Source of the DNA: an uncultured delta proteobacterium | Lineage (GTDB): Bacteria > Desulfobacterota > Syntrophorhabdia > Syntrophorhabdales > WCHB1-27 | Reading direction: 5' to 3' | Assembly: GCA_963810935.1 (NCBI GenBank) | Contig: CAWEPK010000003.1 | Location: forward strand, 32,001-96,000 | DNA: 64,000 nt | In this document: positions 1-17,697 of the stretch, piece after piece | How positions within the stretch are numbered: position 1 is the first letter of the stretch | Layout of the letters: each line of letters starts with the position of its first letter | Position numbers and translations under genes: made by a program | The notes under the pieces: model-generated | Databases searched by the model: none | The model's input: the letters and a program-made list of their open reading frames with translations, nothing else | Told to the model about the DNA's origin: nothing

Positions 1-289
1 TTCCGGAAAATTCCATGACGATGCCGCCGTCCGCGGTCGGGGATATGAATGAATCGTGTTTCTCCGCCGTTATGCCGGTCAGGGGATGGAACCAGTGCGT
101 GTAGTGTGTGGCCCCTTTCTCAATGGCCCAGTCCTTCATGGCGTTCGCAACTATGTCCGCGACATGCGGCTGCAAGGGCAGATCTTTTTCGATCGTTTGC
201 CTCAGGGCCTTGTAAATTTCCTTGGGGAGTCTTTCCTTCATGACCTTATCGTTGAAAACGTTGGAGCCGAAAACTTCCGTAAGCTTCAT
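1..289 (-). CDS. glnN: Glutamine synthetase type III, N-terminal part (runs off window edge)
   Basis: Manual translation from ATG at 289 (not in the ORF track): [26 protein letters not shown]...[32 protein letters not shown], the GSIII N-terminal signature; AAGGAGGA RBS upstream. Confidence 0.93.
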
Positions 290-398
290 GGTCTTATTTT
301 TCCTCCTTGCTTTTTTGTAAATCCTCTCGGACATGGGAGAACAGGCCCAATGACCTTACAGGTCCATTTTTATGCGAGATGTGTAACGTCTCGCCGTT

Positions 399-428
399 TA
401 CAAGTAAAATCTACACTAATATGGTAAC
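399..428 (-). promoter_or_regulatory. Putative alternative-sigma promoter GTTACCA-N16-ACTTGTA upstream of glnN
   Basis: Same 7+7 bipartite motif with the same 16-nt spacer at 2472-2501 and 12169-12198. Confidence 0.75.
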
Positions 429-471
429 TCCCGCCACTGGATTCTCTCGGCGGCTGCCGGAATCCGGCGGC

Positions 472-813
472 CTACCCTATGGCGCTGCCGTCGCGCTCGC
501 CGGTCCGTATCCGGATGCACTCCTCCAGGGGCAGCACGAATATCTTGCCGTCCCCGATTTCTCCGGTACGGCCTCCCTTGATGATCGCCTCGGTCGTCCG
601 CTCCACGAAATCATCGTTGACTGCTATAAGAAGCTGGACCTTTCTGAGCAGGTTTCCCATCTCCTTGACGCCCCTGTAGACTTCGGTCACGCCCATCTGG
701 CGTCCGTGGCCCAGCACCTCGCTTACCGTTATCAGGTTTACTTCCGCCTTGTACAGTTCTTCCTTTACCGCCTCCAGCCTGTCCGGTTTAATAATGGCGA
801 TAATTACTTTCAT
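472..813 (-). CDS. glnK: P-II nitrogen regulatory protein (GlnK/GlnB family)
   Basis: MKVIIAIIKP...GHGRQ...YRG...TGEIGDGKIFV...IRIRTGE; directly downstream of amtB. Confidence 0.95.
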   Translation of the reverse strand: MKVIIAIIKPDRLEAVKEELYKAEVNLITVSEVLGHGRQMGVTEVYRGVKEMGNLLRKVQLLIAVNDDFVERTTEAIIKGGRTGEIGDGKIFVLPLEECIRIRTGERDGSAIG

Positions 814-836
814 GCTCTCCTCCCTCCTCTTAACTT

Positions 837-860
837 TCGGCGCTCGCATACGCTCGCTTT
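837..860 (+). repeat. Partial copy (3' tail) of the intergenic REP-like repeat family
   Basis: TCGGCGCTCGCATACGCTCGCT resembles the tails of the copies at 2145-2222 and 46727-46805. Confidence 0.55.
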
Positions 861-893
861 AATACCCTGCTGCTTGCAGCAGGGTATTTATCG

Positions 894-2120
894 TTATTCG
901 AGTATCGTATATGCGTTCTCGTTGTGCTGCGTGAGGTCGAGGCCCATGATCTCTTCCTTTTCGGGGACCCTCATACCTATCACCCAATCGACCACCTTGT
1001 AAAGAATAATACTTGCGACGAAGCTGTACGCGAGGGTCACCCCGACGGCCGCTGCCTGGATCAGGAGCTGCTTGGGGTTGCCCAGGAAAAGGCCGTTCGC
1101 ACCATCCGGGTTGACGAGCTTCGAGGCGAAAAGCCCGGTGGCCAGCGCGCCGAAGACGCCGCCGACGCAATGGACGCCGAAGGTGTCGAGCGAGTCGTCA
1201 TATCCGAGCAGCGGCTTCACGATTGCGACGGCCAGGAAGCAGAAGAGGCTGACGAATATGCCTATAATGATGGCCGGGATGACGCTTACATAGCCGGACG
1301 CCGGCGTGATCGCCACGAGTCCTGCGACTGCACCCGTTGCCGTACCGAAGGCCGTCGGCTTGCCGTTGTGGATCCATTCTATAAACGCCCATGAAAGGCC
1401 GGCCGTCGCAGCGGCTGTATTAGTCACCACAAACGCGTTTACCGCCAGGCCGTTCGCAGCCAGGGCGCTGCCCGCGTTAAACCCGAACCAGCCGAACCAG
1501 AGCAGCGCGGTGCCAAGGATAACGTGCGGCAGGTTGTGGGGCGGAATGGGCTTCTTATCGTAGCCTTTCCTTTTGCCTATCAGGAGGCAGGTGGCCAGCG
1601 CCGCGATGCCGGAATTGATATGGACGACGGTGCCCCCCGCGAAATCGAGCGCCCCCAGGTCCTTAAGCCATCCGCCTATGCCCCATACCCAGTGTGCGAC
1701 GGGGTCGTAGACAAAGGTGGCCCAAAGGACAATGAATACGCAGAACCCGGAGAACTTCATGCGCTCCGCGAATGCTCCCACGATCAGGGCAGGCGTTATG
1801 ATGGCGAACATGGCCTGGAAGATCATGAACGCCTGGTGGGGGATCGTCGGCGCGTAATCCTTAAACACTTCCAGGCCGACGCCGTTCAGGCCCGCCCACT
1901 GGAGGCCGCCCCAGAACCCCTTGCCGGGCCCGAACGCAAGGCTATACCCGTAGAGTACCCACTGGAGGCTGATAATCGCGAGGATCGTAAAGCACTGCAT
2001 CAGCACGCTGAGGACGTTCTTGCGCCGAACCATACCCCCATAAAAGAAAGCCAGGCCGGGGGTCATGAGCATTACCAGTGCCGAGCACGCCAGCACCCAT
2101 CCAGTATCACCCGTGTTCAT
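894..2120 (-). CDS. amtB: Ammonium transporter (paralogue 1)
   Basis: LMTPGLAFFYGG, DFAGGTVVH, WFGWFGFN and DDSLDTFGVH motifs; twin His present; start at MNTGDT after GGAGG RBS. Confidence 0.97.
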   Translation of the reverse strand: MNTGDTGWVLACSALVMLMTPGLAFFYGGMVRRKNVLSVLMQCFTILAIISLQWVLYGYSLAFGPGKGFWGGLQWAGLNGVGLEVFKDYAPTIPHQAFMIFQAMFAIITPALIVGAFAERMKFSGFCVFIVLWATFVYDPVAHWVWGIGGWLKDLGALDFAGGTVVHINSGIAALATCLLIGKRKGYDKKPIPPHNLPHVILGTALLWFGWFGFNAGSALAANGLAVNAFVVTNTAAATAGLSWAFIEWIHNGKPTAFGTATGAVAGLVAITPASGYVSVIPAIIIGIFVSLFCFLAVAIVKPLLGYDDSLDTFGVHCVGGVFGALATGLFASKLVNPDGANGLFLGNPKQLLIQAAAVGVTLAYSFVASIILYKVVDWVIGMRVPEKEEIMGLDLTQHNENAYTILE

Positions 2121-2144
2121 GAAAGTCTCCTCCTTGGACTCAAA

Positions 2145-2222
2145 CAATTATTGGGGCTCAGCACCCCCTCCACCGGCAAAGCCGGCGGAGCCACCCTGCT
2201 CGGCGCTTCGCATTCGCTCGCT
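2145..2222 (+). repeat. REP-like intergenic repeat, full copy
   Basis: CAATTATTGGGGCTCAGCACCCCCTCCACCGGCAAAGCCGGCGGAG...; close homologues at 46727, 52439, 52533, 62431. Confidence 0.8.
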
Positions 2223-2253
2223 TTTTACTGCCGGCGCTCGGTACTCGCTCCGG

Positions 2254-2309
2254 CAGTAATCGGGTTTGACACCACCTCCACGAGCAAAGCTCGCGGAGCC
2301 TCCCCCTCA
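2254..2309 (+). repeat. REP-like intergenic repeat, second copy
   Basis: CCTCCACGAGCAAAGCTCGCGGAGCCTCCCCCTC hairpin shared with the family. Confidence 0.7.
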
Positions 2310-2324
2310 TAAAAAGGAAAGGGC

Positions 2325-2445
2325 AAAATAAAAAGGCGCCTCCTGTCCTTCAAGTACGTGGACAAGGGACGCCTTCGTCCGGTCGCCAGGGCAAAAAAAT
2401 GGCGCTCTTTTCTAAGAACGCCGCCGTTTTAACACTTCAACGTGT
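2325..2445 (-). promoter_or_regulatory. Putative ANTAR-responsive leader of amtB1-glnK with two tandem intrinsic terminators
   Basis: Hexaloop hairpins ACAC-GTTGAA-GTGT (2432-2445), AAC-GGCGGC-GTT (2417-2428) and GGAC-GAAGGC-GTCC (2367-2380); the last two overlap the 5' arms of terminators at 2393-2422 and 2325-2373. Confidence 0.65.
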
Positions 2446-2471
2446 CTGCCCGATCTGCGGGCTTATATGAC

Positions 2472-2501
2472 TACAAGTAAAAGTTTAAGTCTTTTGGTAA
2501 C
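2472..2501 (-). promoter_or_regulatory. Putative alternative-sigma promoter GTTACCA-N16-ACTTGTA upstream of amtB1
   Basis: Second exact copy of the bipartite motif; about 26 nt upstream of the first leader hairpin. Confidence 0.75.
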
Positions 2502-2504
2502 CGG

Positions 2505-2596
2505 CAATTATTGGGACACCCGCAAGCGGGTACCCGGTCGCCCCCTCCACGTGCGAAGCCCGTGGAGCCTCCCCCTCACAGACTCGCTTTCGCTCG
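2505..2596 (+). repeat. REP-like intergenic repeat, variant with an extra internal hairpin
   Basis: CAATTATTGGG...CCCCCTCCACGTGCGAAGCCCGTGGAGCCTCCCCCTC. Confidence 0.7.
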
Positions 2597-2601
2597 TGGT
2601 C

Positions 2602-3834
2602 CTAGGTACCCGGCGGTTTGCAGCAGGGTAATCTCGAAAGGCCCGGAAAGAGGCGCGCCCATGTGCACCTTGCCTTGATAAGCCCGCCTGTTTCCTGCGA
2701 GACGTCGATCTTTTTGCCTATCAGGCTCACGTAGAGGCCCTCGTTCTGCACGTCGCCCACAAAGGCGAAGCCTTTGAGCACGCCGTCTTCCATCAGGACC
2801 TTCCTGCAAGACCGCTCGTCCTCTTCCCGCAAGACGCCCGGCCCTTCGTCCCTGCTCCTGCCGGCAGTAAATATGGAGACGCCGAATACGCGCAGGACGT
2901 TCCTGGCAAGGCTTCCCGCATATGCGGCCTGCGCCCCCGACATATTGAAGGCCGCTATCCTGCCCTGCTCCACAGCGGCGGGCCACAGGGCATTTACCCT
3001 CGGCTCCCCGTAAACGACGTCCATCGTCTCGACTGCGTCGCCCGCCGCAAAAATGCCGGGCAGGCTTGTCTCCTGGCGATCATCGACGCATATGCCTTTC
3101 TTTACGTCTACGCCGCTGCTTGCGAGAAAGGCGGTGCAGGGGCGGACCCCTTTGCCGAAAATTACCAGGTCGCAGGCCCTCCCGCCGCCCGATTTAAGAG
3201 AAACTTCTCCGTCCTCCCCGATCTCCGTGATGTCGTCGCCGGTGAGGACCTCCACCCCCAGCGCTTCTGCTTTCCGGCGGACGAATTCCGCTGCCGGCTT
3301 GTCGAGCATCGAGGAGAGAATGCGGTCCGAGGAGACGACATAGGTGATTTCCATGCCCAACTTGCGCAGCGCGTCGCCCGTTTCCATGCTCACCGGGCCC
3401 GCGCCCGCTATAACGGCCCGGCCTGCGCTCCCCTTGACCAGCCCCTTCATCCGGGCCACATCGGGCAGGTCGCGGACGGTGAAGACAAACGGCAGGGAAG
3501 CGCCCTTCGTTTGCGGTTTTTCCGGGACGCCGCCGGTCGCGATAAGCAGCCTGTCATAGCTGAAGTCCCGGCCCGGACGGACAAGCACCCGGCGCCTGTA
3601 GTGGTCTATCTCCGTAACCTCCGCACCGGTAATGACCGATACGCCTTCCGGGACAGGCAGAAAAATGTGCTTTTCTTCCACCTCATTCGAAAGGCGGTAG
3701 GGCAGGGCCATCTTCGCGTAGGGGGCGACCCCCTCCTTCGACAGAACCGTAACGGCGCTTGCGGGATCGAGGCGTCGCAGCCATGCAGCGGCCGTCATCC
3801 CTGCGGGACCTGCGCCTATGATAAGGTAGTTCAT
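2602..3834 (-). CDS. NAD(P)/FAD-dependent oxidoreductase (AorC-like subunit)
   Basis: IIGAGPAG, LLIATG, TSLPGIFAAGD motifs; last gene of the aor operon. Confidence 0.85.
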   Translation of the reverse strand: MNYLIIGAGPAGMTAAAWLRRLDPASAVTVLSKEGVAPYAKMALPYRLSNEVEEKHIFLPVPEGVSVITGAEVTEIDHYRRRVLVRPGRDFSYDRLLIATGGVPEKPQTKGASLPFVFTVRDLPDVARMKGLVKGSAGRAVIAGAGPVSMETGDALRKLGMEITYVVSSDRILSSMLDKPAAEFVRRKAEALGVEVLTGDDITEIGEDGEVSLKSGGGRACDLVIFGKGVRPCTAFLASSGVDVKKGICVDDRQETSLPGIFAAGDAVETMDVVYGEPRVNALWPAAVEQGRIAAFNMSGAQAAYAGSLARNVLRVFGVSIFTAGRSRDEGPGVLREEDERSCRKVLMEDGVLKGFAFVGDVQNEGLYVSLIGKKIDVSQETGGLIKARCTWARLFPGLSRLPCCKPPGT

Positions 3835-3843
3835 TGTCCGGTC

Positions 3844-5647
3844 CTAAAGGTCGAGCTCAGCGAGCTTCTCCTTGCCCGGCACCCCTGTCGCGCTCCATCC
3901 GCGCAGGCTGTAGTACTCGGGCAGCATCTTCACAAGCTCGCTCACGTGCCCCTTCGCTCCGCCTTCGGCCAGAGGCACTTTCAACAGGCGCTCGGGCAGC
4001 GTATCGTCTTTCGCCGTAAACCCGGCCTTGATATTATAAAGGCGCTCGAGGTTCCAGATGCGCTCGCCCGCCTTCATAAATTCGTCGGTCGTGTACGGGA
4101 CGCCGGTAGCAGCGCTCAATAGCTCCGCGATCTCGTCCGCGCCGATGCCGAAGGTGGCAAAGAGGCACATGCCCGTCGAATCGAGGGCCGCTGTCAGGTT
4201 CTGGAAGATAATGACCCACTGTGCCTTTCCAACGGTCGCCGTCATATCGATTTTCACAGGGTTGCCGAGCACCTCCACCGCCGTCGTGTAGCCCCGGACG
4301 TGGCAGCCGCCCCGGTTGCCCGTTGCATAATTGAGCCCTATGCCCTGCAGGGCCCGCGGGTCGTAAGCGGGCATCTCCTGCTTCTTCACGGTCATCGAAT
4401 ACTCCGGATGCTCGTAGCTCGCTGCGAGCCGGTAGCTCCCCATCCCAAGCTTTTTGCCGAACCCGACGCCGACGCCTGTCAGGCGGACCATCTCGACCAT
4501 GGCCTCCGCGTTGCCGAAATTCAACGGTATGCCCCCCGTCTCATCGAGACCGATAATACCGTCTTCGAACATCTCCATCGCGCAGGCGACGGTCGAGCCC
4601 ATGGAGATCGTGTCGATGCCGTATTCGTTGCAGAGGTAATTCGCCTTCGTCACCGCATCGAGGTCGTCGACGCCGCACGCGGGCCCGAAGGCCCAGGCGC
4701 TCTCGTACTCCGGCCCCTCTCCGTGGCCCGCGTATTTGGGGTTGGTGACCCGCGTCGCGCGGCCGCAGCTTATGATGCAGGAAAAACACCCTCTGGGGCG
4801 CGTAAGGATCTGTTTGGAAAGCGATTCGCCGCCGACCCTGTCAGCACCGGCAAACATGGGCTGCCGGAAGTTACGGGTGGGCAGGCCGCCGCTTTCGTTG
4901 AGGATATTGACCAGCACGTCCGTTCCGAAGGCCCGCAACCCCCCGCCGCCCACGGGGTGGCTCTTTATCTTCGTCCAGGCATTCGTCATCGCCTTCCGGA
5001 AGGCGTCCGCGTCGGCTACCCGGACCGCGCCTGTGCCCCGGACTGCCACCGCCTTGAGGTTCTTGGCGCCCATGACGGCCCCGACGCCGGTCCGCCCGGC
5101 CGCCCGGCCGTACTCGTTCATGATATTCGCCATGAGGACACCACGCTCTCCGGCAGGCCCGATGCAGGCGACGCTCGCCTCCGGGTCCGTCTCGAGCCGC
5201 ACCGTGTCCGTAGTCTTGTCGGCCGTTTTCCCCCAGAGATGGGCCGCGTCGCGGACCGCAACCGCGTCGTCGTCGATCCAGATATAGACCGGTGTTCTTC
5301 GCCTGCCCTTCAACGACCAGAAGGTCGTAGCCCGCGTACTTCAGCATGGGGCCGAAGACGCCGCCCGAGCTGGAGGCCGCGATCGTGCCCGTAAGGGGGC
5401 CTTTCGTCACGACATCGAAGTGGCCCGCGGACGGGGCGTTCGTGCCCGAAAGCGGCCCAGGCGCGAAGATCAGCTTGTTCTTCGGGCCCAGCGGATCGAT
5501 GGAGGGGTCCGTCTCAGCGAACATCAGATAGGTCCCGAGCCCGCGGGCGCCGATATATTTTTTCGCCGTTGAAAGATCGAGCGGCTCTTTGACGATCGAC
5601 CCGCTCGATAAGTCGATTCGGAGGATCTGGCCGGTCCAGCCGTTCAT
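3844..5647 (-). CDS. aor: Aldehyde:ferredoxin oxidoreductase family W/Mo enzyme (AorB); +1 frameshift near 5295
   Basis: Two overlapping ORFs (MNGWTGQILRIDLS...; GRTGVGAVMGAKNLKAV, CFSCIISCGR, GPEYE, GIDTIS, RGGCH) join into a 600-aa AOR if one base is removed. Confidence 0.9.
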
Positions 5648-5649
5648 CG

Positions 5650-6126
5650 CTACACCTCCTCAAAGCTCTTTTTCAGTTCCGAGGCAATGGCCCTCTGGCG
5701 CGACCGCACGGCATCGGCCTCGTCGACGTAGACGATGGCCTGGGTGGGGCAGAAGGCTACGCATTCCGGCTCTCCCCCGCACAGGTCGCACTTGACGATG
5801 CGCCGCTTCGCGGTCTCGTAAACGACCGCGCCGAAGGGGCAGGCAAGCGCGCACATACGGCAGCCGATGCATTTTGCCTCGTCCCAGCCAACGAGGCCGA
5901 GGGCGCGGTCTTCGTGCATTGCCGTGGTAGGGCAGACCCCAACGCATGGTGCGTCCTCGCACTGCTGGCAGGTGGTGGGCACGGAAAAACCATCCGGCTC
6001 CCACGAAGCGACGTGGATGCGCGCCGTGTGGGGACGGAATTCTCTGTCATGGAAGAAAGAGCACGAAAGCTCACAGTTACGGCAGCCGGTGCACCGGTCC
6101 GGATAGATCATCAGCATTTTACTCAT
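5650..6126 (-). CDS. 4Fe-4S polyferredoxin subunit (AorA/CooF-like)
   Basis: CTGCRNCELSC, CQQCEDAPCVGVCP, CIGCRMCALACP, KCDLC. Confidence 0.9.
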   Translation of the reverse strand: MSKMLMIYPDRCTGCRNCELSCSFFHDREFRPHTARIHVASWEPDGFSVPTTCQQCEDAPCVGVCPTTAMHEDRALGLVGWDEAKCIGCRMCALACPFGAVVYETAKRRIVKCDLCGGEPECVAFCPTQAIVYVDEADAVRSRQRAIASELKKSFEEV

Positions 6127-6499
6127 TGCATGCCTCCCTAAGATAGAAGACTATCCGCGCATACCGGGGCCGCGCCGAAGGTACTTATTTGCGAACGGCC
6201 CCATATGCCTCTTTCCAAAGCATATACGCGCGGTTAGGCGACTTCAATATGTCTTATTTGACATAAATAGAGTGTTTTTTGCGGCTGGACTCGGACCTCC
6301 TGATTTAAGGATGCAAGGCGCACCGAACGTTCGTCGTCCTCGCTGCAAGGAGTAACAGTGTTTCTCTCGCCTCAGCTTTCCCTACACTATTACGAGTGGC
6401 AATCGATGAGGCTTGTAGTTTCCAAAGCAATCAGCTAATATTTACGGCTATTGTACACAATCCTCGACACGCTGACACAGGTTACGGAGGGTCCGGAGC

Positions 6500-9400
6500 A
6501 TGTTGGGCAGATTTCGTTCATGGTCCATAAGCACACATTTAATAACTTTGATAGCTTTCCTGGCAGTCCCCTCCATTAGCCTCATTATCTACTCGGGAAT
6601 AGCCGCGCGCAGGACGGCGATAGACGATGCCGGCGGGGAATGCCTGACACTAGCGGGCAATATTGCGGGTCAGCAGCAGTCCATGGTTGCAGGCGCGGAA
6701 CAACTAGGGGCCGCGCTCTCTGCTCTTCCCCAGGTGCAATCTCGAAACCCCGTCGCCGTCAATGCCCTTTTCTCCGAGCTTTTAAGAAAGAATCCTCAAT
6801 ATGCCAATATCGCCATCTGCGACAAATCGGGCCTGGTCTGGGCATCGGCGCTCCCCGAGGGGGAAAGGGTATCGGTGGCCGACCGGAGGTTCGTTCGGGA
6901 AGCGTTCCGCACGGGGATGTTTTCTTCCGGTGAATACATCGTAGGCCGAATATTGAAAAAACCTGCCATCAGTTTTGGATATCCCGTGAAGGACGTGGCT
7001 AATGAGGTGACAGCAGTAATAGGAATTGTCCTCAACCTGGAATACGCCCAGGGGATGTTCGATAAGCTCGACCTCCCTTCCGGAGCGTCGTACGCCCTTC
7101 TCGACCACCAGGGGGTCATTCTCACCAGAAATATAAATGATCCCCTTACAAAGGGCCTTGTCGGACAGCGTGACACTGTGAAAGAGCTGTTCACAGGCAT
7201 GAAGGCTCCGCCCGAAGAGACAACTTTTCAGGCCATGGGGAACGAGGGGAAGTTCAAGCTGGGCGCCTACAGGAGGATTCGCCTGCCGCATGAGGCGGAG
7301 CCCTATATGTATGTCCGTGCCAGCATACCTCTTTCCTCCGCCGTCGCCGCTGCAAACGCGGCCATGTTCCGCAACCTGGCAACCTTCGTGTCCTTGTTCC
7401 TCACCGGGTTGTTTCTGGCCTGGTTCATCGGGAAGCGCGTCATAGTGAACCCCTTGATGATGTTAAAGGGGGCAGCCGGGCAGTTGGCCGCCGGTGCGGA
7501 TACGGTCAATGTGGCTTCCGTTGTGACAGGCGGCGAACTCGGAGAGTGGCTCGCGCATTCGACGATATGGCTGAGACTTTGATTCAGGAAAAGACCGCCC
7601 TTCGGACAAGCGAGGAGCGTTGGTCCACCACCCTCGCCAGCATAGGGGATGCAGTCATTGCAGCCGATGTTGAAGGAAAGATCACATTCATGAACGCCGT
7701 TGCTGAAGGGCTGACCGGCTGGACTCTCAAAGAAGCCGGAGCGAAACCAGTGACGGAGATATTCAACATCATCAACGAGCAGACCCGTGATCAGGTTGAG
7801 AACCCTGTCATAAAGGTGCTCCGGGAAGGCGTGATCGTCGGTCTTGCGAACCATACGGTCCTCATTAGGAAAGACGGATCGGAGGTCCCCATAGACGACA
7901 GCGGCGCTCCCATAAGAGATGAGGTCGGTAACACCAGCGGGGTGGTACTCATTTTCCGCGATATCACCGAGCGTAAACTGGCCGAAGAGGAGCTTCGTCA
8001 AAGCGAAAAGCGGTATCGGGAACTCTTCGAGACGATGTACGAAGGTTTCATCCTCGGGGAAGTTATAACAGACGAGCAGGGCAGAGCGGTGGATCACCGA
8101 TATCTCGATATCAATCCTCGTGCGGAGCAGCAATTCTTTAAGCGTCCTAGAGAGGAGATTGTTGGCAGTACATATAGAACGGTTGGAGGGGCACGGGCGG
8201 CTGATGAGTGGGCAGAACTGCTCGGTAATGTCGCAATAACTGGCGAGCCTGTATCTGTAGAGCGTTATGCGCCCGTAGGCGATCAGTGGATACACTTGGC
8301 TGCATACTCCCCCCGGATCGGGCAGTTTGCCGCAGTCTTCGAGAATATCACCGAGCGCAAGCAGGCCGAAGAGGCGGTTCAAACAACTCTAAAGCGCCTC
8401 TACACCGTTCTTGCGAGCATGTATGGCGGTCTCTTACTTGTAACGGACGAGAGCCGAGTTGAGTTCGCCAATCAGGCGATTTGCGACTATTTCGATTTGA
8501 GCGAGTCACCCGCAGACCTTGTGGGGCTTACCTCATCCGAAATCTTTGCAAAAATCACTGAAGCCTATTTGCACCCTGATGAAGCGACTGCCCGCGTCAA
8601 GGAAATAGTGGATCGAGGACAACCCGTAGCAAACGAAGAAGTGGCCATGCACAACGGGCGCGAACTCCTACGGGATTTTATCCCCATACGTGTAAACGGA
8701 AAATCGTCTGGCCGGTTGTGGTACCACACAGACATCACCGAACGCAAGGCTATGGAGGAGGCATTACAAAAGGCCCACGACGATCTTGAACAACGAGTGA
8801 TCGAGAGAACTGAGCAGCTCGTTAATAGCGAAAAGGAGTTTCGCTTACTTGCCGAGGCCATGCCCCAAATTGTCTGGATTACCAGAGCGGACGGCTGGAA
8901 CATCTATTTCAACCAGCAGTGGGTGGACTACACGGGACTAACGCTTGAAGAAAGCTACGGTCATGGCTGGAACACACCGTTCCATCCCGATGACAGGCAA
9001 CGCGCCTGGGACGCCTGGCAGAATGCGGTAACGAACAACGGCACTTATTCTCTTGAATGCCGTTTGCGGGCAGCGGATGGGACATATCGCTGGTGGCTGG
9101 CCCGTGGCGTGCCTATTGTGAACGAGGAAGGAGAGACTACGAAGTGGTTTGGTACCTGCACCGATATTGAGGAGCTTAAGAGAGTTGAGGCTCAGCTCCG
9201 CCAGGCGCAGAAAATGGAGGCCCTTGGCACGCTCGCGGGAGGCATCGCCCACGACTTCAACAATATCCTCGCCGCCATCATCGGGTTCACTGAGCTTGTG
9301 GAGGACCACGTCCCTAAAGCGAGCCGGGAGGCACATCACCTGAAGAGGGTCCTGGAGTCTTCCTTGCGAGGCAGGAACCTGGTGCGGCAGATGCTCACCT

Positions 9401-10332
9401 TCAGCAGAAAGGGAGAGCAAGAGAAGAAACCCATGAGTTTGAGCAGCCTCGTCAAGGAGACTGTCAAGCTCATTCGGGCGACCACGCCGACGACGATCAG
9501 CATCAAGGTCAGCACCGGAAGCGAATCGGGTATAATCCTCGCAGACCCTACACAGATGCAGCAGGTCGTCATGAACCTCTGCACCAATGCTGCGCACGCC
9601 ATGCGGGAGAAGGGCGGGACCCTCGACATAAGATTGAACAATTACAACGTCTCTCCATCGGATGGATACCCCCACGGGATCAACCCCGGCCTTTATACGA
9701 GGTTGACCGTCAGTGATACCGGCACCGGCATGTCCTCCGACATCCTCGATAAGATATTCGACCCCTTCTTTACCACGAAGAAATTGGGAGAGGGCACGGG
9801 TCTCGGCCTTTCCGTTGTCCACGGTATCGTGAAGCAATCCAACGGGCATATTACCGTATACAGTGAGCCGGGCAGAGGGTCCGCATTCACCCTGTATTTC
9901 CCTCAGATCACAGACACGGGAGAGCAGGAAGCCTATGCAGCTACTGACGACGAGATTCCCACCGGCTCCGAGCGCATCCTCTTCGTCGATGACGAAGAAG
10001 CTATCGTGGAAATGGGCGAAGACATCCTCGCGGAGCTTGGCTACGACGTGACGTCCCGGGTGAGCAGCAGGGAGGCCCTTGCGCCCTTCAAGCTCGACCC
10101 ATCCCAATTCGATCTTGTCATTACCGACCAGACCATGCCCGAAATGACGGGCGTTGAACTTGCGAAAGAGATCCTCGCTCTCAGGGTGGACATGCCTATC
10201 ATCATGTGCACGGGTTTCAGCTATGTAGTCAATGAGGACAAGGCCAAGGCGGCAGGCATCAAAGCCTTTGCCATGAAGCCCCTAACGAAAAGGGAGATCG
10301 CCCAGACGATCAGAAAAGTACTCGACCAGTAA
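6500..10332 (+). CDS. Hybrid sensor kinase (Cache-HAMP-multiple PAS-HisKA-HATPase-REC); -1 frameshift near 7546
   Basis: ORF 6500-7582 (TM-Cache-TM-HAMP) joins ORF 7546-10332 (AGGIAHDFNN, DPFFTTK, GTGLGL, REC) at GE[L]ARAFDDMA. Confidence 0.88.
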
Positions 10333-10635
10333 GCCCGGTTGCACCTTCCGACTGGTAATCGGTCGTATTCTTCAAATCTCGATTCCGATCAGTTGTAGGT
10401 GAAGGCAACAATCTATGTATGCACTTCCTTAATGTAAATTTCAAAACACATTGAATACTTTTGCGCAATTTGAAGTAAAGAATGACGAGCGCCTCGTTGG
10501 AAGTAAAACGCGTCGGATTCCGTCAGTCTTTAGCCCTCGGTGCACATCCACGTCTAATCGATTTCTTGAGGCGCTCATCCGCCCGTTATTGCCGCAGAGA
10601 TGTCTTTGGAGGACGAGGAACGCGCCGGGCAAGAA

Positions 10636-10761
10636 GCGGCTGCGTATAAAGATGCAGATTTGGTGAAGCGCAAGCCCGAGGAACGGAGGCGTACTCTTTG
10701 TGTACGTCGGAGTCCCGCAGGGCGCGGCGCTACGCCAAAGATGCGCTTTATACGCAGCCGC
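10636..10761. repeat. Long inverted-repeat (MITE/REP-like) element downstream of amtB2
   Basis: Perfect 16-bp terminal IR GCGGCTGCGTATAAAG / CTTTATACGCAGCCGC with further internal pairing. Confidence 0.6.
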
Positions 10762-10767
10762 CCACCC

Positions 10768-11997
10768 CTACTCCATTACGGTATAGGCCGACTCGCGGTG
10801 CTGGCTCAGGTCCAGCCCCACAATCTCTTCCTTCAAGGGCACGCGGACGTCGGTGAAGAGATCGACTGCCTTATAGATGATGTAGGTGGCGACCAGGCTG
10901 TAAGCCGCGACTGCGCCAGTTGCCAGGAGCTGGACAAGGAACTGCCGGCTGTTGCCGAAGAACAGGCCGTCAGCCCCTGCCGCGTTGATCGCCTTCGAGG
11001 CAAATAGGCCCGTAACCAGCATGCCGATGATGCCGCCTATGCCGTGCACGCCGAATGCGTCGAGGGAGTCGTCGTAGCCGAGCTTCGGCTTAATCAGGCT
11101 GACGCAGATAAAGCATATTATGCTCGCGATGAGCCCTATGATTATCGCGGGGAAGGTGCCCACGAAGCCGGAGGCCGCCGTGATCGTGGCAAGGCCCGCG
11201 ATCGAGCCGGTTATCGTGCCGAACATGGTGGGCTTGCCCGTGAAGAGCCATTCGAGAACGGCCCACGTCAGCCCTGCGGTCGCAGCGCCTATGTGCGTGA
11301 CTACCAGGGCATGGACCGCAAGGCCGTTCGCGGCCAGCGCGCTGCCTGCGTTGAACCCGAACCAACCGAACCAGAGCAGCGCTCCGCCCAGCACGGTGAA
11401 GGGCAGGTTGTGCGGGGGAACGGGCCTGTTCTTATATCCGGTGCGCCGGCCGATGACCAGGGCCGTAACGAGGGCGGCGATGCCCGCATTGATGTGGACG
11501 ACGCTGCCTCCCGCGAAATCAATCACGCCCATCTCTTTCAGCCATCCCCCCACGCCCCATACCCAGTGGCAAACGGGGTCGTAAACGAAAGTCGCCCAGA
11601 GGACGGTGAAGATAAGAAAAGCGGAGAACTTCATGCGCTCGGCGAACGCGCCGATGATGAGGGCAGGCGTGATGATCGCAAACATGGCCTGGAAGATCAT
11701 GAAAGCCTCATGCGGAATAGTCGGCGCGTAGTCGGCGTAAGGGGCTGCGCCGACGCCCGCGAGACCGGCCCACGCAAGGCTGCCTATGAACTTATTGCCC
11801 GGTGCGAACGAAAGGCTGTAACCGAAGAAGACCCACTGGAGCGTAAGAATACAAAGGACTACGAAGCACTGCATGAGGACGCCGAGTATGTTCTTGCGCC
11901 GCACCATCCCGCCATAAAAAAAGGCAAGCCCTGGCGTCATGAGCATCACGAGCCCGGTAGAGATCAACACCCACGCGGTATCACCTGCGCTTATCAT
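10768..11997 (-). CDS. amtB: Ammonium transporter (paralogue 2)
   Basis: Same Amt motifs (DFAGGSVVH, WFGWFGFN, DDSLDAFGVH). Confidence 0.97.
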   Translation of the reverse strand: MISAGDTAWVLISTGLVMLMTPGLAFFYGGMVRRKNILGVLMQCFVVLCILTLQWVFFGYSLSFAPGNKFIGSLAWAGLAGVGAAPYADYAPTIPHEAFMIFQAMFAIITPALIIGAFAERMKFSAFLIFTVLWATFVYDPVCHWVWGVGGWLKEMGVIDFAGGSVVHINAGIAALVTALVIGRRTGYKNRPVPPHNLPFTVLGGALLWFGWFGFNAGSALAANGLAVHALVVTHIGAATAGLTWAVLEWLFTGKPTMFGTITGSIAGLATITAASGFVGTFPAIIIGLIASIICFICVSLIKPKLGYDDSLDAFGVHGIGGIIGMLVTGLFASKAINAAGADGLFFGNSRQFLVQLLATGAVAAYSLVATYIIYKAVDLFTDVRVPLKEEIVGLDLSQHRESAYTVME

Positions 11998-12082
11998 TCC
12001 TCTCCTCCCTGGAGTTATCTATGCGGCGACCGCGCCTGCTTGCTTGCGCGGCAACGCCCTTTCGAAAGGCCTTCAGGTGCGC

Positions 12083-12138
12083 AAAAAAGGCTTTCCCTTA
12101 CCGGTAACCTCAATGTTTCCTCGACACGCCAATGTGTC
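12083..12138 (-). promoter_or_regulatory. ANTAR-type dual hexaloop RNA motif in amtB2 leader
   Basis: GACAC-ATTGGC-GTGTC (12123-12138), 5-nt linker, AAC-ATTGAG-GTT (12106-12117); both loops have A1 and G4; followed by a weak hairpin and T6. Confidence 0.72.
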
Positions 12139-12168
12139 AGATTGCGCTTTGGAAGGACTTCCGCCTTT

Positions 12169-12198
12169 TACAAGTCGAAAAGGTGCGTTGATGGTAAC
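12169..12198 (-). promoter_or_regulatory. Putative alternative-sigma promoter GTTACCA-N16-ACTTGTA upstream of amtB2
   Basis: Third exact copy of the motif, just downstream of the sigma-factor stop codon. Confidence 0.75.
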
Positions 12199-12217
12199 TC
12201 GGGGGGGTGCGGCTCGT

Positions 12218-12859
12218 TTAGTTCCGGCAGCCTGCGGTGAGGCGCCTGCTGCCTTTGCGGCCGGCTGCGCGCCCGTTGAGCCTCTCGTATTTTGCCCTTA
12301 TCTTATTGCGGATCTTCACGACGCTGACATGGGAGATGCCCAGTTTCTGCCCTATTTCCCTCGTGGTCAGGCCTTCGAGGCAGAAAAAAAGGACGTCCCG
12401 TTCCCTCTGGCTCGTGCCGGACCCCGTCATCGCCTCAACCTCCAGTATGGTCTCCACCTGGTCGCACGACGGGCGGCCCTCCGCAATGAGCATCTCTTCG
12501 AGGTGCGGCCCGTCCTCTTCCATTATGCGGTTGAGGCTCAAAAGCGTGGTGGGGTCATGCGCTTTCCTTATGTAGTTCTTGAGGTGGAAATAGCAGCCCT
12601 GGAGTATATAACTGTCCGTCTTGTCTTCCAGGTTGCCCGCCAGGAAATCGCACCACAGGTGGATCAGGGCCTCCTGAAGAAGGTCCTGGTCGTCCATGAA
12701 GGAGAAATGGCCGTTCAGCTTGCGGGCAATCCTGCGGAGCGTGGGCGAGAGCTTATCGACGAGGGACTCAAAGGAGAAGTAGCCGGTCCTCGTGCGGACC
12801 TTCTGCGTTCCGGCCGTGTTGTCTACGCTTACAAGATGTCTGCTCGCCATTTCTTCCAT
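12218..12859 (-). CDS. Alternative sigma-70 family RNA polymerase sigma factor (regions 2 and 4; ECF/SigH-like)
   Basis: Region 2-like DDQDLLQEALIHLW...LKNYIRK; region 4 HTH GLTTREIGQKLGISHVSV; no adjacent anti-sigma. Confidence 0.85.
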   Translation of the reverse strand: MEEMASRHLVSVDNTAGTQKVRTRTGYFSFESLVDKLSPTLRRIARKLNGHFSFMDDQDLLQEALIHLWCDFLAGNLEDKTDSYILQGCYFHLKNYIRKAHDPTTLLSLNRIMEEDGPHLEEMLIAEGRPSCDQVETILEVEAMTGSGTSQRERDVLFFCLEGLTTREIGQKLGISHVSVVKIRNKIRAKYERLNGRAAGRKGSRRLTAGCRN

Positions 12860-12876
12860 CCTATGCCCCTCAAACG

Positions 12877-12971
12877 AAAAAAGGCGTCCGAACCCTTTTT
12901 AAGGTTCAGGACGCCTGAGTCCTCTGATTGTCTTTTGCCTACGCAGGCAACGGGAAAGACTTCAATGTCTT
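12877..12971 (-). promoter_or_regulatory. ANTAR-type antitermination leader of the sigma-factor gene
   Basis: P1 AAGAC-ATTGAA-GTCTT (12956-12971); P2 GGAC-TCAGGC-GTCC (12909-12922) overlaps the strong terminator GGCGTCCTGAACCTT-AAAA-AGGGTTCGGACGCC-T6 (12877-12915). Confidence 0.75.
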
Positions 12972-12980
12972 CTTTTCAGT

Positions 12981-13009
12981 AGTATCCTACAAAAACGTAT
13001 CCCTGTCAA
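12981..13009 (-). promoter_or_regulatory. Sigma70-type promoter of the sigma-factor gene
   Basis: TTGACA-N17-GATACT immediately upstream of leader P1. Confidence 0.7.
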
Positions 13010-13080
13010 GCTTGATCGGACGGTAAAACGCGTTTTTTTCTTAGGGGTTGTAAGAGGAGGGCGGTTCGCCGGCTGCTTTT

Positions 13081-14304
13081 CTAACGTCTTATGTCCGCTG
13101 CCACGATGATCGCGTCAGCCACTTCCCTCATGCTCTTTCTTAAGTCCATGCTCTTTTTGTGGATCTTCTTGTACGCCTCGTCCTCTCCGATGCCCATCTC
13201 CTTCATCAGCACGCCCTTGGCCCTCTCTACGACCTTCCTCGTCTCCAGGGCCTCTTTCGCCGACAGTATCTCCTGGTCGAGGCGCGTGTTCTCGATCGCC
13301 ACGGCCGCCTGGTTGGCGATGGCCTGCATGATGTCGATCTCCTCCCTGGAGAAGTTGTGCTGCTTCTGCATGTAGCTGTTTATGACGCCGATGACCCTGT
13401 CCTTAATCATCATCGGCACCGCTATCATGGAGACGACGCCCTCTTTCTTTGCGACGTGCGGGTACATATAGCCCGGCTCTTTCGTAACGTCGGCAACAGT
13501 GATGGGCCGTTTTTCGAGCACCACCCTGCCTGCACTCGATTGGCCCACCTTCAGGTTCGGCTTGTTGATGTATTCCTGGCTGAGGCTCTGCGTTGCCGCA
13601 ATGACAAGCTCCTGCTTCTTTTCGTCGAGGAGCATGATCGAGCAGATCTTCGTGCCCATCACCTGGGCGGTCATGGTCACGATAAGCTGGAGTATCTCTT
13701 TCAGGTAGTAATCGGAGACGATGGTGCGGCTTACCTCCGACAGGAGGTCGAGCTGCTTGGCTTTCCTGTTGATCTCTTCGTAGACGACCGCGTTCTCGAT
13801 GGCGCTCCCCAGGTACTTCGAGATCGTGAAGAGCAGGTTTACCTGGTCCTCGGGATACTCGTACTCTTTTTTGTGGTGCAGGTTCATAACGCCCGTGATC
13901 TTGTCCTTCGCAAGGATGGGGACCGCCAGAAACGCCTCGTACTTGTCTTCGGCCAGCGCGGTGAAGCTCTTGAACCTCGGGTCCTTGTACGCCTGGCGCG
14001 CGAGCGCGACGGGCTTCTTTTCCTTTGCGGCCCAGCCGGTCACGCCTTCGCCCAGCTTAAGCTTGATCGCACCCACGACCTTGCTGTGGCCCGTGCCCGC
14101 GGCGCGGAGCGTCAGTTCGTCGTTCTGCTCGCTATAAAGATAGATAAGGCACGAGTCTGCGCCGGTCAGGCCGACCACCATATCGACGATATGGGCGAGA
14201 AGCTCGTTCAGCTCCAGGTTGCTGCTGATATGCTGGGCCACCTGGTGTAAGATGGCCATCTCCTGTTCTTTCGCGCTCTGTTTCCGCCCTGCTTTGGTCG
14301 CCAT
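13081..14304 (-). CDS. GAF-GAF-ANTAR RNA-binding antiterminator
   Basis: Two GAF repeats (LGEGVTGWAA...DPRF...FLAVPI; SMIAVPM...IGVIN) and a C-terminal ANTAR (LETRKVVERAKGVLM...EDEAYKKIHKKSMDLRKSMREVADAII). Confidence 0.92.
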   Translation of the reverse strand: MATKAGRKQSAKEQEMAILHQVAQHISSNLELNELLAHIVDMVVGLTGADSCLIYLYSEQNDELTLRAAGTGHSKVVGAIKLKLGEGVTGWAAKEKKPVALARQAYKDPRFKSFTALAEDKYEAFLAVPILAKDKITGVMNLHHKKEYEYPEDQVNLLFTISKYLGSAIENAVVYEEINRKAKQLDLLSEVSRTIVSDYYLKEILQLIVTMTAQVMGTKICSIMLLDEKKQELVIAATQSLSQEYINKPNLKVGQSSAGRVVLEKRPITVADVTKEPGYMYPHVAKKEGVVSMIAVPMMIKDRVIGVINSYMQKQHNFSREEIDIMQAIANQAAVAIENTRLDQEILSAKEALETRKVVERAKGVLMKEMGIGEDEAYKKIHKKSMDLRKSMREVADAIIVAADIRR

Positions 14305-14342
14305 TGGTGCTCCGTACGAGAATAAGCCCGGAATAAGAGTCT

Positions 14343-14371
14343 ATCTTATTGTATCGCACCCCCTTTGTCAA
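14343..14371 (-). promoter_or_regulatory. Sigma70-type promoter of the ANTAR gene
   Basis: TTGACA-N17-TAAGAT. Confidence 0.55.
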
Positions 14372-14434
14372 CCTTGCCCTGCCTTGCGTTTCAGCCGCTC
14401 CCGGCTCGCGAATAAAATCTATTTCCCATAGAGA

Positions 14435-15505
14435 TTGTTATGTGATAGAAAGATGTGCGAGGTAAATCCGGAAATGGTTGGCAGACAGAACGAGATGGAC
14501 CGGCTGCTCCAGGCCCTGCGCGACCCCGACTGGGAGAAGCGCTTCAAGGCCGCCGAGGGGCTCGGCAAGCTGAAGAGGGCTAGGGCAGTGCGGCCGCTTA
14601 TCGAGGCGCTCAAGGACGAAGAGGAATACGTCCGGGAGGGGGCCGCCTGGGCCCTGGGCGAGATAGGCCACAAGATGGCGGTCGAGCACCTGACGGAAAC
14701 GCTCGCAGACAAGGACAGGTACGTGCGGGAGGGGGCCGTGACCGCCCTCGGTAAGATAAAAGACCCGGGTGTCGTCGCTCCGCTCGCGGGCTCGTTGAAA
14801 AACCCGGAAGAATCGATGAGGCGGGCCGCCGAAGAGGCCCTGGGAGGGCTCGGGCCCGCCGCACTCGGAGAGATTGCCGGTCTGCTGACGGATGCGGACT
14901 GGGATATCAGGTGGAGGGTCACGCACATAATGGGGCGCATCAAGGACGGCTCGGTCGTCCCCGCCCTGTGCGCAAGCCTGAAGGACGAGAACAAATACGT
15001 GCGGGAAGGGGCGGCGGCGGCGCTCGGCGAGATAGGGGACAAAAAGGCCGTGCCGGCGCTGGTCGAGGCCCTGGGCGACCAGAATAAATACGTGCGCGAA
15101 GAGGTCGTGAACGCCCTGGGCGAGCTGGGCGACAAAAGGGCGGTTGATGCCCTCATGGGCGCCCTCGACGATGCGGACTGGGGCGTCCGGTGGGGCGCAA
15201 CGAACGCCCTTGGCGAGATAAGGGACAAAAAGGCGATTGATGCACTCATCCTCCGCCTGAAAGACGAAGCGCGATACGTCCGCGAGGGCGCGGCGCTCGC
15301 CCTCTCCAGGATAGGCAGGGCGGCGGTCCCGACGCTCATCGAATCCCTCAGGGACAAAGACCGCAACATAAGGCGCTGGGCCGCCTGGACCCTGGGTAAG
15401 ATCAAGGACGAGAGGGCCGCCAGGCACCTCATAGGGGCGCTCAACGACGAGGACGGGGGAGTGCAGTTCGCCGCAGAAGTCGCCCTCGCCGAGATGGAAG
15501 AGTAA
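14435..15505 (+). CDS. HEAT (PBS-lyase-like) repeat protein; start uncertain
   Basis: About 11 tandem 31-aa repeats of the form YVREGAAxALGEIGDKxAVxxLxxALxD. Confidence 0.85.
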   Translation: MLCDRKMCEVNPEMVGRQNEMDRLLQALRDPDWEKRFKAAEGLGKLKRARAVRPLIEALKDEEEYVREGAAWALGEIGHKMAVEHLTETLADKDRYVREGAVTALGKIKDPGVVAPLAGSLKNPEESMRRAAEEALGGLGPAALGEIAGLLTDADWDIRWRVTHIMGRIKDGSVVPALCASLKDENKYVREGAAAALGEIGDKKAVPALVEALGDQNKYVREEVVNALGELGDKRAVDALMGALDDADWGVRWGATNALGEIRDKKAIDALILRLKDEARYVREGAALALSRIGRAAVPTLIESLRDKDRNIRRWAAWTLGKIKDERAARHLIGALNDEDGGVQFAAEVALAEMEE

Positions 15506-16797: not shown

Positions 16798-17697
16798 TCA
16801 GGCCAACCGGATACGGAACTTCTCGACCATGCGGTCCGGGTTATAGGATAGCTTCGCCTCCCTCAAACCCGGCTCCCCCAGGTCCTGCTCGCGGTTGACG
16901 AAAGGTACGCCCGACCATTCACGCTCGCAGAACTGCTGGTTTATCGCGGCGTAAAGACCGCGTATCTCGACATTCGCTTTCTCTATATGGACGACGGCGG
17001 TCTGCGCATTGAGGCGCTCACCCAGGGTGAACGCCTCGACTTTGCCTTCGATGAGGATCGCCCCGCCTTTTATCTGCAATGCGCGGAAATTCAGGAGGGC
17101 TTCCCGCGTCGCGTCGCCCTCGCCGATCAGGTTCAGGTCCTCTTCGCACCGCCGCAGCTCGCACCACGTGACCGCCATTTCCAGGCAGGCATCGATATGG
17201 CCTTCCTCTATAGGCTCATAAACAAACCTGTAGGAGCGCATGAGGTAATTGAGGTGGTTCCGCTTGGACCGGTACGCCTTGCCTTCCAGCCTGATGAGGT
17301 CGTCGGTCCGGTAGACGTAATCGAAGTGGTCGCGCACGGGCTCGGATGCGAAGCCCCCGTCGGAGGCAAGCTCGGCCGCGAGCCGCGCGTCCGCCCTGTC
17401 TATGCGCGGCGCCTCGACGTGCCTCTCGTCTGCCAGCCACGAAAGGAGCATCCGGGTAACTTCCGCCCGTGACGGCGGCCCGATAGGGGGTAGGGCACAG
17501 ACGCCGTTTCCTGAAGGTGAGCCGATTACCAGCAGCCAATCGCCGAATACGGACCAGGAAAACCCGTAATGCGACCTCCATATGAACATGTTGGTGAAAT
17601 TCAGCTCGGACGTTTCCGGCCCGTAGGCCTCAAGCCTGCCCCTGATGAAGTCCCTGTCTTCGATGCCGACAGGCTTGAATTCCGGAAACTCAGGCAT
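16798..17697 (-). CDS. DUF2156 / phosphatidylglycerol lysyltransferase-domain (GNAT-like) protein
   Basis: SELNFTN, DYVYRTDDL, KRNHLN, HIEKAN, NREQDLGEPGLREAKLSY. Confidence 0.8.
   Translation of the reverse strand: MPEFPEFKPVGIEDRDFIRGRLEAYGPETSELNFTNMFIWRSHYGFSWSVFGDWLLVIGSPSGNGVCALPPIGPPSRAEVTRMLLSWLADERHVEAPRIDRADARLAAELASDGGFASEPVRDHFDYVYRTDDLIRLEGKAYRSKRNHLNYLMRSYRFVYEPIEEGHIDACLEMAVTWCELRRCEEDLNLIGEGDATREALLNFRALQIKGGAILIEGKVEAFTLGERLNAQTAVVHIEKANVEIRGLYAAINQQFCEREWSGVPFVNREQDLGEPGLREAKLSYNPDRMVEKFRIRLA

Follow-up and report, generated by a model that had tools for sequence, protein, structure and literature searches.

What reads the bipartite sequence GTTACCA-N16-ACTTGTA? The question is raised by a 64-kb stretch of DNA from an uncultured delta proteobacterium (contig CAWEPK010000003.1, positions 32,001 to 96,000; hereafter the window, numbered from its first letter), in which this motif stands ahead of three nitrogen-assimilation units. 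Along the minus strand, a gene for a GAF-GAF-ANTAR protein is followed by a sigma-like gene, a copy of the motif and amtB2; beyond an unrelated block come a second copy with amtB1 and glnK, and a third with glnN (Table 1). In bacteria, control of nitrogen regulons classically falls to sigma54 activators or operator-binding factors. We propose that the motif is probably a -35/-10 promoter read by the adjacent sigma70-family protein, predicted to be a dedicated nitrogen sigma whose synthesis would be gated by the GAF-GAF-ANTAR antiterminator.

Scanning the window recovered the three exact copies described in the original prediction, with strand and spacing as claimed: all 14/14 positions are identical, the 16-nt spacers differ in sequence, and each copy is oriented as its downstream gene. 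Chance would give a mean of 0.02 copies, and none of 100 shuffles reached three. That the window holds no other copy had been judged by eye; a scan allowing up to two mismatches confirmed this. At spacer 16 the 4.06-Mb source genome contains four exact copies; the other spacers scanned (8-15 and 17-30) gave none. The fourth copy (C7:726) lies ahead of a gene for a GAF-AAA-HTH NifA-like protein, in front of a leader with hairpins and terminators, and a fifth site, one mismatch away from the motif, lies before a gene of the amino-acid-permease family. In a weight-matrix scan of the genome these five sites scored at least 25 bits and the next best 13. Examination of that permease gene in four relatives revealed the motif before it in one and a sigma54-type site in one. 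The association with all nitrogen-assimilation units holds within the window and fails genome-wide, since no motif stands before glnK3-amtB3, a porin gene, the urt/ure operon or an orphan glnK. The orphan gene (G000:C5:15042-15383) resembles the glnK of the window.

The sigma-like protein is encoded by a single-copy gene and has 1,098 homologues at E <=0.001; its neighbors in the Atlas are unnamed clusters, the top three mostly from Omnitrophota. By profile the best solved relatives are SigB and FliA, and matches in the PDB include SigB (8x6g), FliA (9wsf) and Fusobacterium sigma-H (3mzy), the best fold matches having 16-27% identity. The structure model contains two confident helical domains, and the top rows returned by Foldseek were all sigma70-family proteins, with weak scores (best E 1.8e-4). 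Superposition with VIA-align placed model residues 29-100 on residues 375-446 of E. coli sigma70 (1sig; Z 8.4, root-mean-square deviation 2.0 over 68 residues) and residues 135-195 on region 4 of SigF (Z 8.3, 1.9 over 56 residues). A sigma70 2.2-like motif, D59-L60-Q62-E63, is invariant in 33/33 aligned rows, and together with the model alignment it points to a sigma2 fold with a core-binding region 2.2. A sigma4 helix-turn-helix is indicated by the only Pfam match over cutoff, the LuxR-type HTH PF00196, by a weak match to PF08281 and by alignment to region 4 of FliA, SigB and SigF.

Related loci were taken as the best 80 of 178 stretches, chosen around the sigma gene. Their record titles name Syntrophorhabdales, which are the closest relatives of the window, other deltaproteobacterial bins and Omnitrophota, with a few labelled Planctomycetes, Elusimicrobia and Patescibacteria. 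The exact motif occurs on the sigma strand of these loci 84 times with a 16-nt spacer and 5 times with a 15-nt spacer, and 0 times on the other strand; a non-palindromic motif always oriented with its gene had been described, and this was borne out at spacer 16 by 84 copies against 0. Allowing one mismatch gave 98 sites, and 84 of these immediately precede amtB (21), porin-like genes at the head of an operon (36, one cluster of which has no Pfam match), glnN (9), glnA (7), PII-cluster genes (5), gltB (3), a small gene in front of gltB (2) or the gene of a glutamine amidotransferase (1). Of the remaining sites six are at locus ends, and nifH and a prismane gene are among the genes that the others precede. 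Part of this enrichment comes from picking the loci around the sigma, a bias from which the whole-genome scan of the source genome is free. Among the targets expected at the outset, gltB and nifH are direct targets in relatives and an amino-acid-permease-family gene has the one-mismatch site, whereas urt has a sigma54-type site here. The nifH case is an Omnitrophota-labelled contig (L083:1042-2042) with the motif immediately before nifH and two PII-like genes; one query found no nifH in the genome of the window. In L014-L018 and many Omnitrophota loci the end of the sigma coding sequence extends into the left box, so that many homologues end in G-Y-Q, and five loci of one clade have a 15-nt spacer at this overlapping site. 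Motif-led operons also contain amino-acid-permease-PII fusion proteins (L031:2648-4522, L015, L018 and L034), and in one Omnitrophota locus the sigma gene is followed by a large Ig-repeat protein with an SpvB-domain match (L065:10659-13202).

Across whole genomes the motif accompanies the sigma. Presence and absence were counted from exact matches, as the one-mismatch level is noisy and a reversed control matches many genomes at that level. Among 96 Syntrophorhabdales genomes, 66 have the sigma and 49 the exact motif, which is present in 46/66 sigma-bearing genomes and 3/30 others; in the largest family the counts are 27/45 with the sigma and 0/24 without. In 251 Omnitrophota genomes the motif was found in 42/65 with and 4/186 without the sigma. 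Of 151 Elusimicrobiota genomes, 7 have the sigma. A scan of this phylum with a relaxed right box gave matches in 11/151 genomes, 4 of them sigma-bearing; of five other matches inspected, one lies before a PII gene and four before no nitrogen gene of the reference set. The sigma-negative Syntrophorhabdales genomes G074 and G065 have one-mismatch sites before nitrogen genes, and their contigs end in nadE, just short of the usual place of the sigma. Sigma-negative Syntrophorhabdales mostly retain amtB (22/30), and in five sigma-less genomes the amtB operon is preceded by a sigma54-type site, in most cases next to a NifA-like gene.

Sequence variants tie each box to a separate domain of the protein. 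Canonical loci have AC at positions 4-5 of the left box in 88/90 sites. Three sigmas with the helix sequence SHMMVWK, one clade nested among canonical sigmas, go with altered left boxes at 5/5 sites (GTTGACA three times, GTTTACA and GTTAACA), all of which keep ACTTGTA and lie before nitrogen genes or operon-leading porin-like genes. Two whole genomes with SHMMVWK sigmas contain no exact canonical motif; a metagenome scan aimed at SHMMVWK returned one such locus among 23. Two SHTMV sigmas go with GTTTCCA (2/2) and two SFVRV sigmas with GTTTACA and GTTAACA, again with ACTTGTA kept, and each of these sites is the only GTTNNCA-N16-ACTTGTA match in its genome. One SHVMVF sigma has the left box GTTAACA. 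The recognition helix of region 4.2 was aligned to FliA SESRVSQ, and by this alignment and sigma70 numbering the changed positions are presumably those of sigma70 R584, E585 and R588. These three residues govern -31 and -33 (PMC2613000).

For the right box, the 20 weakest full-length Omnitrophota homologues were fetched and one with a canonical region 2 (L187) was set aside; in the remaining 19 loci region 2 has diverged and region 4.2 is kept. With sites anchored on GTTACC[AG]-N16/17-ACT, the right box ends in TGTA at 2/35 sites in these loci, compared with 58/59 in canonical Omnitrophota-like loci and 28/35 in other canonical loci. An Elusimicrobiota sigma of the diverged-region-2 clade also has ACTTATA. 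When one domain changes, its own box changes and the other box stays; this is expected of a sigma that reads -35 and -10, and not of a symmetric dimer or a bystander. The two-way covariation is the strongest evidence linking motif and sigma, with exceptions given below. The original assignment of the motif to this sigma, made from proximity, now has the support of presence and absence in two phyla and of box changes that follow the matching sigma domain.

The position of the motif relative to the predicted RNA is also informative. Hairpins were called ANTAR-type when the loop has a purine at position 1 and G at position 4, after PMC3369931. They are present within 120 nt downstream at 82/87 sites; the corresponding counts are 15 upstream and 34 on the reverse strand, and shuffling gave a mean of 19.8. 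The first hairpin starts at least 9 nt past the motif in 72/82 cases and within 4 nt in five; at the nifA-like site the distance is only 7 nt. A purine 6 nt past the last A of the right box (logo position 35), found in 80/91 sites, is suggestive only, as a plausible transcription start.

The core regulon amtB, glnK, glnA, gltB and nif is the domain of NtrC/sigma54 and of the palindromic regulators GlnR, TnrA, NtcA and NrpR; the latter bind symmetric operators, and sigma54 uses -24/-12 sites. The motif here serves the same core regulon and is asymmetric. It lacks the -24 GG/-12 GC pattern of sigma54 promoters and has the form of a sigma70-type promoter: two asymmetric boxes, a fixed spacer, one orientation and a place immediately upstream of the RNA. 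It could instead be the operator of a transcription factor (Crp-, Lrp- or Fis-like, or the sigma-like protein itself acting without polymerase), with the promoter elsewhere. The LuxR-type match as sole Pfam hit would suit such a protein, Crp and Lrp genes flank some loci, and the boxes have a 3-bp inverted TAC/GTA in common. We consider this quite unlikely, as Crp is found in only 24/80 and Lrp in 10/80 loci, the boxes are not complements of each other and vary independently, so that dyad symmetry is not kept, the hairpin distances leave little room for another promoter, and the protein is predicted to have a sigma2 fold.

Resemblance of the left box to TTGACA raises the possibility of an unusual housekeeping sigma70 promoter, perhaps activator-assisted, with the small sigma a bystander. 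TTACCA matches at 4/6 positions, one lineage has exactly GTTGACA, and at two of the four sites in the source genome a TATA-like stretch lies 5 nt beyond the motif. This explanation is very unlikely, given that ACTTGTA lacks the TAnnnT pattern, that the sigma and ANTAR genes of the same genomes have ordinary TTGACA-17-TAnnnT sites, and that the motif is mostly gone where the sigma was not found. Two other placements of the promoter elements were rejected: the TATA-like stretch as a -10 overlaps the first hairpin at the nifA-like site, and ACTTGTA as a -35 box has no conserved -10 17 nt later. Strand specificity and adjoining RNA hairpins would also fit a motif that acts in RNA as part of the leader. 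We find this hardly credible: the boxes do not pair, the spacer is fixed in length and free in sequence, the motif covaries with DNA-binding helices, and a search of window positions 1-15000 matched no Rfam family, returning a single chance-level match.

The motif had been placed upstream of leader hairpins at all three window units. This stands for amtB1 and amtB2; in the glnN leader neither an ANTAR-type hairpin nor unusual folding (z 0.0) was found. The amtB1 leader has the dual hairpins of an antitermination target, the second overlapping a terminator, and comprises two attenuator-like units, with loops that start with G and not with the A of the EutV model, and the amtB2 leader has two hairpins and a weak terminator. 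In the sigma leader there is a strong terminator and one fully canonical hexaloop hairpin. A crude scan, made with no control, of the DNA ahead of the sigma unit in 76 loci found a housekeeping-type site in 57, a hairpin in 73, a terminator in 58 and all three in 45.

Could the sigma read the promoter while its activity is controlled otherwise, by an anti-sigma, PII, NadE or proteolysis, with the leader attenuator minor? The single fully canonical hairpin in the sigma leader would fit this, as would nadE, which adjoins the sigma in most loci (cluster in 64/80, as for GAF-ANTAR), and the genomes G050, G052 and G061, in which the sigma is truly lost locally and GAF-ANTAR kept. Such control is unlikely, given the strong terminator between the housekeeping-type promoter and the sigma start and the joint occurrence of promoter, hairpin and terminator noted above; moreover, the gene clusters of the 80 loci include no conserved anti-sigma candidate, a class of protein that is itself poorly conserved. 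In loci L014-L082 translational coupling often joins nadE to the sigma gene, and NAD synthetase would there share the attenuator; in the genome of the window nadE lies apart from the sigma, at 17697-19763.

If synthesis of the sigma is gated by antitermination, the circuit would probably operate as follows. The housekeeping polymerase would transcribe the GAF-GAF-ANTAR gene and start the sigma leader, terminating there by default. Under low nitrogen the GAF domains would free the ANTAR domain, allowing read-through into the sigma gene. The sigma would then recognize GTTACCA by region 4.2 and ACTTGTA by region 2, with RNA starting about 6-7 nt past the last A. Most target leaders would need ANTAR again, which would make a feed-forward loop from which glnN here is exempt. 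Finally, the NifA-like activator would relay the signal to the sigma54 promoters of amtB3, the porin and urt/ure. Among GAF domains, those of PtsP and NifA are the most similar to the ones here; because the PtsP GAF binds glutamine (PMC4848567), they probably sense glutamine or 2-oxoglutarate.

A sigma54 second tier below the motif-driven NifA-like gene is likely, judging from the sites: glnK3-amtB3, the porin gene and urtA-ure have in common a sigma54-type site and no motif, and rpoN is present in the genome. The three sites are near-identical (C7:253432-253446, minus strand, for glnK3-amtB3; C9:187319-187333, plus strand, for the BBP2 porin; and C9 at about 37,400, minus strand, for the urtA-urease operon). 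In them ATTGA/ATTGG replaces the usual TTGC, and two also have similar leaders.

Several observations weigh against the assignment of the motif to a sigma controlled in this manner. The protein has no Pfam Sigma70_r2 match and narrowly misses the TIGR02937 (sigma70-ECF) cutoff (40.5 against 42.9 bits); its fold scores are only moderate, and the Z values are moderate for helical domains. An exact motif copy is absent from 20/66 sigma-bearing genomes in Syntrophorhabdales and 23/65 in Omnitrophota, and the sigma was not found in the motif-bearing genomes G085, G075, G095, G230, G251, G268, G306 and G352. Of the four sigma-less Omnitrophota with the motif, two have contigs that end at the locus and one has its site near no recognized nitrogen gene, and G251 is a real exception: nadE runs directly into amtB, yet the motif persists before the glnN operon. 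Kin are not independent, and genome counts overstate the association. The covariation, placed on quick trees, includes few independent events, one clade for the right box and two to four for the left. L187 (SHVRVFK) and L036 (SHARIVK) have helix changes, yet their left box is still GTTACCA, and GTTAACA, ACTTTTA, ACTCGTA and ACTTATA also occur with canonical sigmas. The second hairpin loop of the sigma leader starts with U, off the ANTAR loop consensus. Separately, a one-residue, one-base code was rejected on L187, L036 and L086.

The system resembles an alternative sigma70 promoter coupled to ANTAR attenuation, and both kinds are already known. The nearest design, as outlined in PMC2995071, is the GnfL/GnfM - RpoN - GnfK/GnfR cascade of Geobacter sulfurreducens, which has the same two layers of nitrogen control, a special promoter and then ANTAR antitermination, with nifH and PII targets. 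The Geobacter promoters are sigma54 -24/-12 sites and an activator controls the ANTAR system, whereas here the site is of a 7+16+7 sigma70 type, a one-component GAF-ANTAR protein is predicted above the sigma and a sigma54 activator below it. Leaders such as that of amtB1 share with targets of the dual-hexaloop antiterminators EutV, NasR and AmiR the hexaloops with purine 1 and G 4 and overlapping terminators before nitrogen genes (PMC3369931). The main text of that paper states that GAF-ANTAR proteins are uncharacterized and reports no sigma-factor target, its sole use of "sigma" being a supplier's name; its supplementary hit tables could list some of these leaders. Extracytoplasmic function (ECF, group 4) and small group 3 or SigH-like sigmas, as described in PMC8103513, are likewise small sigma2 plus sigma4 proteins with stringent bipartite promoters, a 16-nt spacer and small regulons, and some ECFs are controlled solely through production. 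The present sigma differs in that no adjacent anti-sigma was found, no motif stands before its own gene and a SigB-like linker segment is kept; its predicted control is by antitermination, and "nitrogen" and "antitermination" are absent from the main text of PMC8103513. It was not filed as an ECF, because it misses the TIGR02937 cutoff and lacks ECF autoregulation: its own gene has a housekeeping-type site, and 1/98 motif sites precedes a sigma gene (L021). In relation to NtrC/sigma54, sigma-less relatives have a sigma54 site and a NifA-like gene in place of the motif. No description of the motif or the sigma was found in the literature, for which coverage of subscription papers and supplements was incomplete.

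Table 1. Features of the nitrogen locus, in window positions.
Feature	Position	Strand	Basis
glnN 5' end (glutamine synthetase III)	1-289	-	Start 289 chosen by ribosome-binding site; open-reading-frame finder start 334
Motif 1 (left box 428-422, right box 405-399), predicted glnN operon promoter	399-428	-	Genome and window scans
glnK (PII)	472-813	-	PF00543; start read from sequence
amtB1 ammonium transporter	894-2120	-	PF00909; start read from sequence
amtB1 leader: twin hexaloop hairpins 2446-2431 and 2428-2417 overlapping terminator 1 (about 2422-2393)	2325-2446	-	z -4.1, -3.0 (whole leader)
amtB1 leader, second unit: hairpin 2380-2367 overlapping terminator 2	within 2325-2446	-	z values with the row above
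Motif 2, predicted amtB1-glnK promoter	2472-2501	-	Genome and window scans
amtB2 ammonium transporter	10768-11997	-	PF00909
amtB2 leader: twin hexaloop hairpins 12139-12122 and 12117-12106, weak terminator-like stem with T run	12083-12139	-	z -1.15
Motif 3, predicted amtB2 promoter, 20 nt past sigma stop codon	12169-12198	-	Genome and window scans
sigma70-family protein, 213 aa, single copy, sigma2-like and sigma4-like domains; predicted motif reader	12218-12859	-	Profiles, structure model
Sigma leader: hexaloop hairpin 12972-12955, strong terminator 12915-12877; predicted ANTAR attenuator	12877-12972	-	z -4.8
Housekeeping-type promoter-like site TTGACA-17-GATACT before sigma leader	12981-13009	-	Similar site in 57/76 related loci
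GAF-GAF-ANTAR protein, 407 aa; predicted nitrogen-sensing antiterminator	13081-14304	-	Domain profiles
Housekeeping-type promoter-like site TTGACA-17-TAAGAT of GAF-GAF-ANTAR gene	14343-14371	-	Sequence

Other features surround these genes. Downstream of glnN, beyond the window (L003:5970-8006), lie FlpD, MTHFR-C and MTHFR genes and split glutamate-synthase genes, and several relatives have similar FlpD-MTHFR genes after nitrogen genes. An aldehyde:ferredoxin oxidoreductase gene at 3844-5647 (minus strand) appears split into overlapping frames (4871-5647 and 3844-5313) by a frameshift or sequence error. A REP-like short palindromic repeat is found between genes at about 862-885 and 2610-2630, and at about 37,900 of G000:C9. 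The HEAT-repeat gene at 14435-15505 (plus strand) is divergent from the GAF-GAF-ANTAR gene in 7 related loci.

A broader view seems somewhat more likely than not: in Syntrophorhabdales, many Omnitrophota and some Elusimicrobiota, this undescribed sigma70-family factor would be the master sigma for nitrogen. It would fill the role of sigma54/NtrC with a metabolite-sensing GAF-ANTAR switch and no anti-sigma or kinase, nifH would be under its direct control in one Omnitrophota genome or more, and its variants would spell a residue-to-base code for both boxes. New here are the Syntrophorhabdales case, the two-way covariation and the sigma54-type sites that take the place of the motif in sigma-less relatives. 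The natural sigma and promoter variants offer a direct way to test specificity and might supply orthogonal parts for synthetic circuits, and the exactness of the motif allows regulon prediction in uncultured genomes, including nitrogen fixation in Omnitrophota. If true, a sigma70-type factor dedicated to nitrogen and itself controlled at the RNA level would add another design to nitrogen regulation, in lineages with almost no regulatory data.

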